A DNA stretch of 46,761 bases from NCBI GenBank assembly GCA_013375475.1, contig JABXKD010000021.1:1-46761 (forward strand), in the 5' to 3' direction. Position numbers and translations under genes: made by a program. Positions 39,436 through 42,433 of this stretch are shown here, in pieces (position 1 is the first letter of the stretch; each line of letters opens with the position of its first letter). Under the pieces are notes generated by a model. It had not been told where the DNA came from. It saw only the letters and a program-made list of their open reading frames with translations, and did not search any database. Origin of the DNA: Promethearchaeota archaeon (GTDB lineage Archaea; Asgardarchaeota; Lokiarchaeia; Sigyniarchaeales; SOKP01).

Positions 39436-40437
39436 TTATGATTGTCCATAATTTTGTCCCATAGTTATTACTACTTTTCCTCGGGCGTGCCCCTCTTCAA
39501 GGTACCGAAGACCTTCAGCAACCTCACTTAAGGGGTAAAGTCTATCTATAACAGGTACAAATTTGCCGGCTTCAAAAAGTTCTCCCAAAGAAACCATACT
39601 TTCTTTTTTATTTGATTTCCACATCATGATACCCATTTTTTTACTCCCAAATAATGAAACCAATGGCCCTAGGAAGATATTTTGGTAAATTGGCCCATTT
39701 GAACCCCCGATCAAGGCATATATTCCCTTTGGATTCAAAGCACGTTTACAATTGAATATTGAATGATGTGCCGCAACATCAAGAATCAAGTCATAGCGCT
39801 GCCCACTTTTAGTGAAATCTTCTTGTGTGTAATCAATGACATAGTCTGCACCAATCGAGCGTACCATATCTAATTTCTTCGTACTAGCCACCCCAGTCAC
39901 TTCTGCACCGAACGATTTGGCAATCTGCACCGCGAACGTACCCACACCACCACTCGCACCATTAATCAAAACCTTATGTCCTGACTGAATACGTCCTTTA
40001 TCGCGAAGACCCTGCAGGGCGAGGACTGCCGCTTGAGGTAAAGTTGCTGCTTGCTCAAATGTCATACTAGCGGGTTTCGACCTTAATGCATCTTCAGGAA
40101 CACATACATACTCAGCAAAAGCGCCAAAACCATATTTCCATGTGTCCACGAATATCTCATCACCTGCCTGAAACTGCTTTACATTTCTGCCAATTTCATC
40201 AACCCGTCCGGCTACATCCGATCCTAGTATTAAGTATTTGGGTTTTCGAAGCCTTTTCATACGATAATAGAAAGATCCCCTCACGAAATCCAAGTCAGCG
40301 GGATTTAAGGATGATGCTTGAATTTTTATCAATACTTCATTGTCATTGGGACTTGGTTTTTCTATATCTTTTAACTGAAGAACATCCGGCGGTCCGTATT
40401 TTGGGCATACAATCGCTTTCATTTTCTTAATTTCCAT
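39436..40437 (-). CDS. MDR-family NAD(P)-dependent alcohol dehydrogenase/quinone reductase-like protein
   Basis: MKAIVCPKYGPPDVL, LGSDVAG, GAFAEY, VLINGASGGVG, GHARGKVVI. Start likely 40437 or 40422, since ATG 40470 lies inside the repeat. Confidence 0.93.
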   Translation of the reverse strand: MEIKKMKAIVCPKYGPPDVLQLKDIEKPSPNDNEVLIKIQASSLNPADLDFVRGSFYYRMKRLRKPKYLILGSDVAGRVDEIGRNVKQFQAGDEIFVDTWKYGFGAFAEYVCVPEDALRSKPASMTFEQAATLPQAAVLALQGLRDKGRIQSGHKVLINGASGGVGTFAVQIAKSFGAEVTGVASTKKLDMVRSIGADYVIDYTQEDFTKSGQRYDLILDVAAHHSIFNCKRALNPKGIYALIGGSNGPIYQNIFLGPLVSLFGSKKMGIMMWKSNKKESMVSLGELFEAGKFVPVIDRLYPLSEVAEGLRYLEEGHARGKVVITMGQNYGQS

Positions 40438-40462
40438 TTTATTAACCATTTTAGCATGAAAA

Positions 40463-40510
40463 ATCTTCATTTATGATTTTTTAAATAGCTATTTTGGTTT
40501 TAAAAGCCAT
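40463..40510 (-). pseudogene. Dead 5' fragment of a DUF362 gene copy
   Basis: Reads MAFKTKIAI*KIINED versus MGSKTKISIQQIKNED of the intact gene. Confidence 0.8.
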
Positions 40511-40556
40511 AATATGCATTCATCTGTAAAATGTAAAAAGATTTCGTTACACGAAA
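40463..40556. repeat. Imperfect direct repeat, copy 2
   Basis: Matches 39302-39395; 32 of 39 identities over the promoter part (39357-39395 vs 40518-40556). Confidence 0.85.
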
Positions 40557-40572
40557 GAAAAAAAGAAAAAAA
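40554..40572 (-). terminator. Oligo-T terminator downstream of the ubiquitin-like gene
   Basis: Long T-tract on the minus strand starting ~17 nt after the TAA. Confidence 0.5.
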
Positions 40573-40588
40573 TTTAAAATTTTATTTA

Positions 40589-40840
40589 TTATCCGCCAGC
40601 TTGCGTAGCCATTACGGTAATTACATCCTTCTTTGGATGAATTCCTATTTTGGCGAACTTTAATTGGTCGGGAAGTACTTTTCCTTTAAAAATAAATTGA
40701 ATAGCCAGAATGGGATTAAGTTTATATTCCCTTTGAACCGTTTTCTTAATTTCTGCTATTGATTGGTTAGGATCTACTTCAATTAATTTAATAGCTTGGT
40801 CTGGTGGAACACCAGTTAATCTAAAGCGATATTGGGTCGT
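40589..40840 (-). CDS. Ubiquitin-like protein with C-terminal diglycine, 83 aa, candidate ACG start; not in ORF track
   Basis: (M)TQYRFRLTGVPPDQAIKLIEVDPNQSIAEIKKTVQREYKLNPILAIQFIFKGKVLPDQLKFAKIGIHPKKDVITVMATQAGG*. IEVDP..SI..IK and FIFKGKVL.D match ubiquitin LEVEPSDTIENVK and LIFAGKQLED. Confidence 0.88.
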   Translation of the reverse strand, partial: TTQYRFRLTGVPPDQAIKLIEVDPNQSIAEIKKTVQREYKLNPILAIQFIFKGKVLPDQLKFAKIGIHPKKDVITVMATQAGG

Positions 40841-41080
40841 GGTTCTTTCACATCCTTTTTGATATTAATTTTTTAAGATAATATAAGATCTTACTAGAGT
40901 AATGTGCAAATTTCTAATTAAAAACAAAGGTATTTTTAATTAAATTGAAGTTTATTCAGCTAAAAGTGTAATATTAGCTAAAATAAGGTTCAGATTCATA
41001 AATTCTTAAAGTCAACCTAGATAAAACTAAAGTATAAGTATACCCAAAAGTATAAATCTCTATATTTCTATTTTATATTT

Positions 41081-42433
41081 ATGTCTAAATTCGTGGTAAC
41101 TGCTAAAGTAAAAGAGAAGGTTTTATCAGAAATCAAAAAAATTGATCAAAACGAGTTACGAATTCTCTATTTATTAAGAAATTTGGGACCATTGAGATTC
41201 ACGAACATTATAGAATATTCTGGTTTGAGTAGATCTACAGTATCCAAATATGTTAAGTTCCATATCTCTAAAAATAATGTTGAAAAAAGAATTTATAGGA
41301 ATCCTTCAAAGAATATCCAAGAACAGCGTTATTTTATAACAGATTTAGGTACTGAAAAGCTTGGTGAGGAAAATATCGGTTATGATGAATCAATTTATTT
41401 TAGTGAAATTAATGATCTTATTTCGAACCTTTCTGAATTAAAAAACTTTTACAAAGAAATCAGCGTTGCGGAATCCATCATAACAGACATCACTCGAAAT
41501 ATAATTAATATGGGTGAAAATTATTTTTTTATAGAACAAAATCGCGACTTGTATCTAACGCTATTTTACATCTACAACAATTCTGTTCTAACCAGAGATT
41601 TTAAATTCGAGATTACAGAGTTTTGCAAGCATTATAATGTTAAGAAATTAAGAATAGATTTTTATGTAGATCGCCTATTGTCCAGCGATTTAGGATTATA
41701 TATGTTTAGTCGAGGAGAGGATAGATTCTTTTTCCACAGAGAGGATGTACTTGGTGTTTCGACCATCCGATTAATTAAAGATAATTTGATAAACGAGATA
41801 GTTGAGTTAAACATAGCTGAAGAAAAAATGATCTCTGACCTAGATTTAGATAAATTAGCTGAGGACATAATTGAGAACTTATTAGAAATGGAATTGATAT
41901 GGGATGTGAATGAATCGCAAGGGATCAGCGGAATAAAAGAGCCATTTGAGATGTTGGTTGAGAAAATGATAATTAAAAATGCGCTAGAGATGGGTATTCC
42001 AAAAACATCCTTAATGGATATTGCGTTGCAGTCTAAAAAACTATTAAAAGCAGAAGGAGGAAAAAACTCTTTATATAACATAATAAACAATTCTGAGCGT
42101 TATGAAGACTTAAATCTCGTTTCTATCTCTGAATCTGAGGAAACCGAATTATTTCAAAGTTTAAAGCTATTAAGTGGCTTTTGCCCTAAATGTGGAAAAA
42201 CAGTGTTAAAAAATGATTTATCTAATTTATGTGTTAGATGCGGATTAAACTTCGAAAATAAAGAGTTATTAAGCGATATTGAGGCAGCGAGTGAGTTGAG
42301 TGTAGCATATAAAATAGCATCTCTTGAAGAAGAAAAAGAAATTGAATGTCCTAATCCAAATTGCAATTATTACGTAAAAACAAGCTGGGTAGAATGTCCA
42401 GAATGCCTTACTCCCTTGAAAAAGAAAACTTAA
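41081..42433 (+). CDS. Winged-HTH (MarR/ArsR-like) protein with C-terminal zinc ribbons
   Basis: ILYLLRNLGPLRFTNIIEYSGLSRSTVSKY...YFITDLG; C-terminal CPKC/CVRC and CPNPNC/CPEC. Confidence 0.82.
   Translation: MSKFVVTAKVKEKVLSEIKKIDQNELRILYLLRNLGPLRFTNIIEYSGLSRSTVSKYVKFHISKNNVEKRIYRNPSKNIQEQRYFITDLGTEKLGEENIGYDESIYFSEINDLISNLSELKNFYKEISVAESIITDITRNIINMGENYFFIEQNRDLYLTLFYIYNNSVLTRDFKFEITEFCKHYNVKKLRIDFYVDRLLSSDLGLYMFSRGEDRFFFHREDVLGVSTIRLIKDNLINEIVELNIAEEKMISDLDLDKLAEDIIENLLEMELIWDVNESQGISGIKEPFEMLVEKMIIKNALEMGIPKTSLMDIALQSKKLLKAEGGKNSLYNIINNSERYEDLNLVSISESEETELFQSLKLLSGFCPKCGKTVLKNDLSNLCVRCGLNFENKELLSDIEAASELSVAYKIASLEEEKEIECPNPNCNYYVKTSWVECPECLTPLKKKT

Follow-up and report, generated by a model that had tools for sequence, protein, structure and literature searches.

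Ubiquitin systems of Asgard archaea, together with links between ubiquitin and ESCRT, have been described (bioRxiv 10.1101/2021.08.17.456605; PMC5654768; PMC6043591, in the accessible parts of these papers). In Caldiarchaeum subterraneum, according to the accessible text, a single operon encodes the modifier, an E1-like and an E2-like protein, a RING protein and an Rpn11/JAB protease (PMC5654768; PMC6043591). The gene considered here lies in a stretch of 46,761 nucleotides from a Promethearchaeota archaeon (Lokiarchaeia; Sigyniarchaeales; assembly GCA_013375475.1, contig JABXKD010000021.1, positions 1 to 46,761), and this whole stretch is called the window. It encodes a ubiquitin-like protein with a C-terminal Gly-Gly and carries ACG at the position where most of its orthologues have ATG. 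It is best read as a functional, stand-alone ubiquitin-family modifier gene of this Lokiarchaeial genome, the translation of which would begin at ACG, and we put the probability of this reading at roughly 0.8. Membership of the ubiquitin family is of a known kind; the initiation at ACG, AUA and AUU that extends through the lineage and includes aIF1 is a new form of near-cognate initiation.

In eukaryotes, near-cognate initiation and the autoregulation of eIF1 are established, and starts at ACG, AUA and AUU occur; the Asgard lineage is the one closest to eukaryotes. In bacteria, infC starts at AUU and IF3 is subject to autoregulation. As in infC and the eukaryotic near-cognate starts, the codon seen here is one base from AUG and occupies a conserved start position, where it appears to be helped by a Shine-Dalgarno (SD) motif, and, as with infC, the gene of a start-fidelity factor is itself non-AUG in this lineage (aIF1). 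In contrast to those cases, the organism is an archaeon, and ACG is the codon most enriched behind SD motifs. General background on near-cognate initiation can be found in the accessible part of PMC4705826. A literature search, for which most subscription journals and supplements lay outside, returned no report of archaeal ACG starts, of non-AUG Asgard ubiquitin genes or of an AUU-started aIF1. As judged from the literature searched, conserved SD-led ACG, AUA and AUU starts in essential genes would be the first systematic archaeal case.

The ubiquitin-like coding sequence spans 40592..40840 on the minus strand and comprises 83 codons (TTQYRFRLTGVPPDQAIKLIEVDPNQSIAEIKKTVQREYKLNPILAIQFIFKGKVLPDQLKFAKIGIHPKKDVITVMATQAGG), of which the first is the candidate start ACG (40838..40840, minus strand) and the last two encode Gly-Gly. 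A preliminary description, made from the sequence alone, had pointed to a ubiquitin-type frame of this length that ends in AGG and a stop and is followed by a T-tract, and this stands. Directly after the Gly-Gly come tandem stops, TAA TAA, at 40586..40591 (40591-40589, then 40588-40586), and beyond them is a T-rich tract at 40554..40579 with T7 runs at 40572-40566 and 40564-40558 (all minus strand). The tract looks like an archaeal terminator and may function as one. As had also been noted, the frame is closed upstream by an in-frame TAA at 40865..40867 (minus strand), nine codons before the frame, and the sole in-frame ATG, GTG or TTG is Met77, which lies seven residues before the end. The eight codons between this TAA and the ACG include no ATG, GTG or TTG, and none of them is one base from ATG. 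The SD-like motif GGATGTGA is found at 40848..40855 on the minus strand, and the position of the ACG, 7 nt after it, was confirmed.

The gene belongs to the ubiquitin family, PF00240. The Pfam match has an E value of 4.9e-10 and a score of 39.5 bits, against a cut-off of 25.4, and aligns residues 17-80 with positions 11-71 of the 72 in the profile. HMMER searches against PDB sequences gave polyubiquitin and ubiquitin-like domains as the best matches, and in the HMMER alignment with ubiquitin I50 falls on Ile44 and K54 on Lys48, both of these residues being invariant among 20 orthologues. Further support came from an AlphaFold2 model that used the 20 orthologues as input (pLDDT 92.1, pTM 0.81). 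The elements of this model follow the beta-grasp order (strand 2-8, helix 13-16, strand 17-22, helix 28-38, strand 45-51, helix 62-65, strand 73-80), with strand 1 starting at residue 2. The top Foldseek matches are ubiquitin, NEDD8 and SUMO (TM 0.77/0.83 and rmsd 2.1 A against 1ubq), and structure 6fnn, from the Caldiarchaeum subterraneum ubiquitin system, is also among the matches. The prediction thus favours the ubiquitin/NEDD8/SUMO type over the SAMP type.

In family, fold, Ile44 and Lys48 equivalents and Gly-Gly end, the protein resembles eukaryotic ubiquitin and NEDD8 as well as the ubiquitin-like proteins of Lokiarchaeota and Promethearchaeota, and it shares with ubiquitin an extreme degree of conservation. 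Unlike ubiquitin, to which it is only about 22% identical, it is encoded by a single gene, without polyubiquitin or ribosomal-protein fusion, and unlike ubiquitin genes it has an ACG start, in the window's species and in four others. The SAMP, ThiS, MoaD and Urm1 proteins are likewise small beta-grasp proteins with a terminal GG and activation by an E1 of the ThiF family. However, the best sequence and fold matches of the window's protein are ubiquitin, SUMO and NEDD8, and the genome encodes UQ_con E2s. A sulphur carrier of the ThiS/MoaD/SAMP kind was considered and rejected: the Pfam matches, taken up to E 10, include no ThiS/MoaD family, and no sulphur-transfer gene was seen among the six neighbours scanned.

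The gene is the best ubiquitin match of its genome and the only close copy. A match is present in 37 of 41 related genomes and orthologues in 33 of the 42 genomes of the genus. Relatives at 73-100% identity, from Lokiarchaeota, Promethearchaeota and Hodarchaeota, bear the public names ubiquitin-like protein or hypothetical protein, and the closest proteins are named Lokiarchaeota or Promethearchaeota, in keeping with the Asgard setting that had been suggested. Among 20 orthologues of several families, 51 of the 83 positions are invariant, and residues 2-16 are conserved. Over 22 loci, of which 21 are from the genus and one is from another genus, pN/pS averages 0.046, and the protein is 100% identical between species at pS up to 0.6. 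The genome's most ubiquitin-like protein is almost invariant, and it is encoded apart from its enzymes.

The GG is kept in 32 of 32 genus loci. It is followed by nothing in 14 of these, by one extra residue in 16 and by longer tails in two. A single residue after the GG is also seen in eukaryotic ubiquitin precursors, and orthologues of this type would need JAB or another protease, whereas the free GG of the window's protein means that processing is not needed in this genome. Two relatives from other metagenomes, P0007 and P0010, have lost the GG and carry a tail of about 27 residues that ends in Cys-Cys or Ile-Cys; they could be non-conjugatable or lipid-anchored variants. In the orthologue L052 (G004:C55:13007-14754), which loses its N-terminus to a contig end, ten extra residues, NLENSLLSCE, interrupt the last strand just before TVMATQAGG.

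The start codon was compared among orthologues. Of 30 loci taken from relatives, 23 have ATG at the aligned position, four have ACG and one has ATT, and in the remaining two an ATG lies one codon away. Twelve further genus loci were fetched, eleven of which were readable while one was cut by a contig end. The 32 genus loci, from 31 genomes, have ATG (20), ACG (5), ATT (4), TTG (2) and GTG (1), so that the orthologues do not all have ATG. The five ACG loci belong to five different species representatives: the window's genome (G000), G011, G002, G014 and G056. The sister genera of the family have ATT (g16), ATG (g15 and g14) and TTG (g13), and the other families of the order have ATG in all nine loci read, at the aligned codon in seven and displaced by one codon in two.

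In four of the five ACG loci an in-frame stop lies 2-8 codons upstream, and in L002 and L003 this is a TGA two codons before the ACG. The exception is L004, of G014, in which the upstream frame is open for 33 codons and contains an ATG as well as a TTG at codon 8. The public 106-residue protein P0003 of G014 starts at this ATG. Neither the ATG nor the TTG has a counterpart in the other ACG species, so both starts look like artefacts of gene calling, and the public call carries an unsupported N-terminal extension. The preliminary description had proposed a conjugation-type modifier that is initiated at ACG and missed by callers limited to ATG, GTG and TTG; the aligned ATG, the five species and the SD motif speak for this. 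Within the genus, such callers miss or truncate not only the ubiquitin-like gene but also those for SMC, threonine synthase, PheRS-beta and aIF1.

As ATG is the majority state and a single T-to-C change suffices to give ACG, the codon could be a sequencing or assembly error, or a recent mutation that inactivated the gene and left a pseudogene. This had been raised as an option from the outset. However, ACG recurs in the five species, and three runs from two studies (X1, at depth 52, X2 and X4) yielded Logan contigs that span 40838-40840 with ACG and with no difference among those listed, although one of the three may be the source sample and the comparison is one of contigs and not of raw reads. 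In addition, pairwise comparison of four of the five ACG genes (L001-L004; the fifth, L042, lies outside it) gave 9-33 synonymous and 0 non-synonymous differences, which is not what decay would give. All five loci keep the third base of the ACG, though only 12.7% of Thr codons are ACG. Of the gene's five other Thr codons, four vary at the third base among close loci, and at each of these four G002 and the window differ. Almost no weight is left for an error or a lesion, and initiation at a conserved ACG is preferred.

The start codon of this gene appears to turn over in a manner specific to it, since the divergently transcribed neighbour, which served as a control, has ATG in 31 of the 31 genus loci where it was found. 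A protein tree of this neighbour (33 rows, 29 from the genus and four from sister genera, made by a quick method and with four long branches) groups the five ACG loci with three ATG loci and a single TTG locus in a nine-row clade (SH-aLRT 100). An ATG locus is the sister of each of three ATT loci (support 99, 93 and 92), and the tree requires the start codon to have changed state 11 times or more. A 12-row tree from the DNA of the neighbour did not resolve relationships within the ACG clade and, given also the quick method and long branches of the larger tree, the gains and losses of ACG (four changes at minimum) are not firm. At least 11 changes of the start codon of a nearly invariant protein point to selection on how much of the ubiquitin-like protein is made.

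A different possibility is that translation begins at another codon. The candidates are the ATG within GGATGTGA, from which the frame could be reached by frameshift, by read-through or by re-initiation after an ATG-TGA mini-frame, the ATT at codon 17, and Met77. In the window, the ATG of the motif is out of frame and TGA follows it immediately. The sequence ATGTGA does occur 6-7 nt upstream in all five ACG loci and in the ATG locus L005, the upstream ATG is in frame with the gene in L002 and L003, and the database protein P0002 begins MWNNTTQYRF, which corresponds to ATG-TGG in place of ATG-TGA. Against this, the upstream ATG lies 13 nt away and out of frame in the window, in L004 and in L042, but 12 nt away in L002 and L003, so that there is no single conserved frame relation. 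Threonine synthase and SMC have their ACG starts without an ATG-TGA mini-frame, and a protein begun at codon 17 would lack strand 1, and one begun at codon 77 nearly the whole fold, although residues 2-16 are conserved. A start elsewhere is very unlikely, and the ACG is retained as the start.

The context of the ACG is that of an SD-led start. The 16S 3' end of the genome reads ...GGATCACCTCCT, and GGATGTGA matches seven of the eight positions of GGAGGTGA. At 944 confident ATG starts the spacing of the SD 5-mer has its mode at 6 nt and a range of 4-9, within which the 7-nt spacer of the ACG falls; such a 5-mer stands 4-9 nt ahead of about one in seven of these starts (137 spacing matches for 944 starts). 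The motif (G/A)GATGTGA is present 6-7 nt upstream in all five ACG loci. The assembly has three 16S 3' ends, on contigs C154, C222 and C263, and the C263 version differs in sequence; it stands beside bacterial-looking tRNAs, which fits the estimated contamination of 6.4%.

The enrichment of ACG behind SD motifs extends over the genome. Codons were scored that lie at least five codons before the first ATG, GTG or TTG of frames of at least 100 codons. An SD 5-mer lies upstream of 19 of 147 ACG codons (12.9%), as against 691 of 23,964 for all codons (2.9%; binomial p 5.8e-8), and no codon other than ACG exceeds 5.7%. With strict spacing, 10 of 202 ACG codons are preceded by the motif and one of 202 at the control spacing of 12-17 nt. 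The corresponding counts are 30 of 1453 for ATA (control 10, p 0.0014) and 31 of 1920 for ATT (control 18, p 0.03), and the strict-spacing background is 346 of 30,866.

Six of the 19 frames headed by an SD-preceded ACG have a Pfam domain that begins before the first canonical start. These encode a PIN-domain protein (G000:C11:8204-8755, plus strand; domain 10-105, first canonical start at 78), threonine synthase (G000:C111:69464-70819, plus strand, L074/L085; domain 3-79, first canonical start at 31), SMC (G000:C212:31606-35088, minus strand, L076/L195; domain from 21, first canonical start at 97), V-ATPase AC39 (G000:C215:21700-22758, plus strand; domain from 28, first canonical start at 51), PheRS-beta (G000:C231:25154-26833, plus strand, L080/L108; domain 4-71, first canonical start at 17) and a radical SAM protein (G000:C281:1924-2691, plus strand; domain 25-118, first canonical start at 57). 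Orthologues confirm the predicted ACG starts of threonine synthase and SMC. For threonine synthase, ACG stands behind gaggtttttgaN in nine of 22 loci and ATG in seven; in G002 this gene has ATG and the ubiquitin-like gene ACG, while in G008 the reverse is seen. For SMC, at least 14 of 30 genus loci have ACG-GCT with no canonical start before the conserved N-terminus, and two loci have ATG-GC(A/T) at the equivalent place. An ACG start is not a peculiarity of the ubiquitin-like gene: it appears to be one of many near-cognate starts in the genome and the genus.

PheRS-beta was rejected as a case of ACG initiation. Here, other genera have their ATG opposite an ATA that lies two codons after the ACG (gaggtgaa acgaaa ATA cct). 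In the genus, 32 loci have ATA (17), ATT (7) or ATG (8) at this start, and outside the genus 15 of 16 loci have ATG and one TTG. Starts of this kind bear on the proposal that C-to-U editing turns ACG into AUG in the mRNA, after which initiation would be canonical. Such editing would account for ACG being found specifically at the start positions of several genes. However, we know of no such mRNA editing in archaea, and the ATA and ATT starts of the genus, which occur in PheRS-beta, aIF1 and the ubiquitin-like gene itself, are not convertible to AUG by a C-to-U change. Editing is highly improbable, and direct reading of the ACG is favoured over it.

The ACG could also be read by a dedicated initiator-like tRNA with the anticodon CGU. 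No initiator tRNA was detected in the genome's own assembly (ARAGORN with and without introns and Rfam tRNA gave 23, 29 and 36 tRNAs), so that its anticodon is not directly readable. A pattern search, however, found an initiator-type anticodon arm in 12 of the 42 genus genomes, among them the ACG-start carriers G002 and G056, and the anticodon is CAT in all 12 and CGT in none, which makes a special CGU initiator unlikely. The sole CGT-anticodon tRNA seen in the window's genome looks like an intron-bearing elongator tRNA-Thr. A dedicated tRNA has next to no chance of being the explanation, and the ordinary initiator is taken to serve.

The enzymes with which the modifier would act are encoded elsewhere. 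None of the genome's E1 and E2 matches falls on the contig of the window; ThiF (E1) matches are on C37, C226, C255 and C24, UQ_con (E2) matches on C37, C226 (with three stops) and C9 (partial), JAB on C37 and RING on C77 and C155. This fits the earlier suggestion that the modifier acts in trans, with no E1, E2 or E3 nearby. A ubiquitin-system cluster at G000:C37:55-6164 comprises a ubiquitin-like frame, an LRR protein, a ThiF E1, a UQ_con E2 and a JAB protein with an HSHP motif, and in this the genome is like the Caldiarchaeum subterraneum operon as the accessible text presents it. Unlike the modifier gene of that operon, the window's gene is outside the cluster, sits beside a winged-helix gene and needs no C-terminal processing. 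The ubiquitin-like frame on C37 is 124 residues long, has an N-terminal extension and ends in AGQDKHRFF, with no GG end. The UQ_con match at G000:C226:31094-31558 (minus strand), near a 532-residue E1-like frame, lies at the end of its contig and has three in-frame stops (one TAG and two TAA); it may be a pseudogene or an assembly problem.

A mechanism can be proposed on this basis. The leader GGAUGUGA would pair with seven of the eight bases of the 16S 3' end and thereby place the ACG, 7 nt downstream, in the P site. The ordinary initiator Met-tRNA (CAU) would pair with bases 1 and 3 and tolerate the mismatch at base 2. Met would then be the first residue of the protein, probably to be cleaved off ahead of Thr2, and the product would be an 83-residue beta-grasp protein with a free C-terminal Gly-Gly that requires no processing. 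Activation would proceed through adenylation by a ThiF-type E1 and transfer to a UQ_con E2, with the RING proteins and the JAB isopeptidase also acting on the modifier. Initiation with Met, the level of expression, which the preliminary description took to be low or regulated if ACG is the start, and conjugation are what we infer. In the proposed scheme, the ACG start belongs to a set of SD-led near-cognate starts (ACG, AUA and AUU) that runs through the lineage, and the efficiency of such starts should depend on aIF1, which itself appears to start at AUU here.

Several points weigh against the proposed ACG-started modifier. The gene was not found in nine of the 42 genus genomes, some of which are 92-99% complete. 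A position-weight-matrix scan of start regions did not single out ACG, although the matrix mostly captured A/T richness, for which reason SD k-mers with a spacing control were used instead. Among the 19 SD-ACG frames, seven have domains that do not bear on the start and six have no Pfam match, and PheRS-beta, with its start at ATA, shows that not every SD-ACG match is a start. The C37 cluster has its own ubiquitin-like gene, which raises the question of partners for the window's protein, and the host assembly is in 288 contigs with an estimated contamination of 6.4%. To our knowledge, NCBI table 11 does not include ACG among its start codons. In addition, aIF1 discriminates against AUU and destabilises non-AUG mRNA complexes, according to the accessible parts of PMC4705826 and PMC6237735, and for this reason the yield from ACG could be very low.

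The gene for aIF1 itself (G000:C234:645-977, plus strand, L160/L165) has no ATG, GTG or TTG before its SUI1 domain. It was compared in 30 loci of the order (orthologues L166-L194), and in 21 of them the stretch from the in-frame stop to the zinc-knuckle Cys contains no canonical start. An ATT exactly 9 nt after GGTTGTGA or its equivalent is present in all 11 genus loci, in three loci of g12, in two of g13 and in one of g15, while ATC is at the equivalent place in g16 (two loci) and ATA in g5 (two loci). In L180 a single codon separates the stop from the ATT. The other nine loci (g14, g9, g2, g10 and g11) have GTG, TTG or ATG.

As aIF1 is reported to select against AUU and its own gene appears to start at AUU, self-limitation of the kind seen with infC is suggested, in which aIF1 would limit its own synthesis and fix a set-point for all near-cognate starts. 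Taken further, this gives a start-stringency circuit, which is possible but doubtful. In it, an AUU-started aIF1 (AUC- or AUA-started in sister genera) would limit itself and jointly tune a set of SD-led ACG, AUA and AUU genes, namely those for the free ubiquitin-like modifier, SMC, threonine synthase and PheRS-beta. If this were so, the supply of ubiquitin would be coupled to the state of the initiation machinery, and regulated non-AUG initiation, which is usually deemed eukaryotic, would already be present in Asgard archaea.

The surroundings of the gene are metabolic or of the winged-helix type. Pfam scans of six neighbours gave DUF362/Fer4, a Zn-dehydrogenase, the winged-helix (wHTH) protein, an acyl-CoA synthetase, an FMN reductase and Fer4. 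A riboswitch or structured leader was considered for the start region and is unsupported: an Rfam scan of 40300-41200 found no family except a chance CRISPR-DR60 match (E 0.4), and around the start shuffled sequence folds as well as the native one (z -0.43). The divergent neighbour, at 41081..42433 on the plus strand, encodes 450 residues with an N-terminal winged helix (weak Pfam HTH_5/MarR matches at residues 23-59) and C-terminal Cys-rich ribbons. It is syntenic with the ubiquitin-like gene, which it adjoins in 31 of 32 genus loci, and it could be a regulator of the divergent pair. The 240-nt intergenic region between the two genes, 40841..41080, contains the blocks TTATACTTTTGGTTATACTTATACTTTAG and TAAACTTCAATTTAATTAAAAATACCTTTGTTTTTAA, which are strongly conserved in an alignment of eight close loci, and a repeated TATACTT stands among the conserved blocks, beside the neighbour's start.

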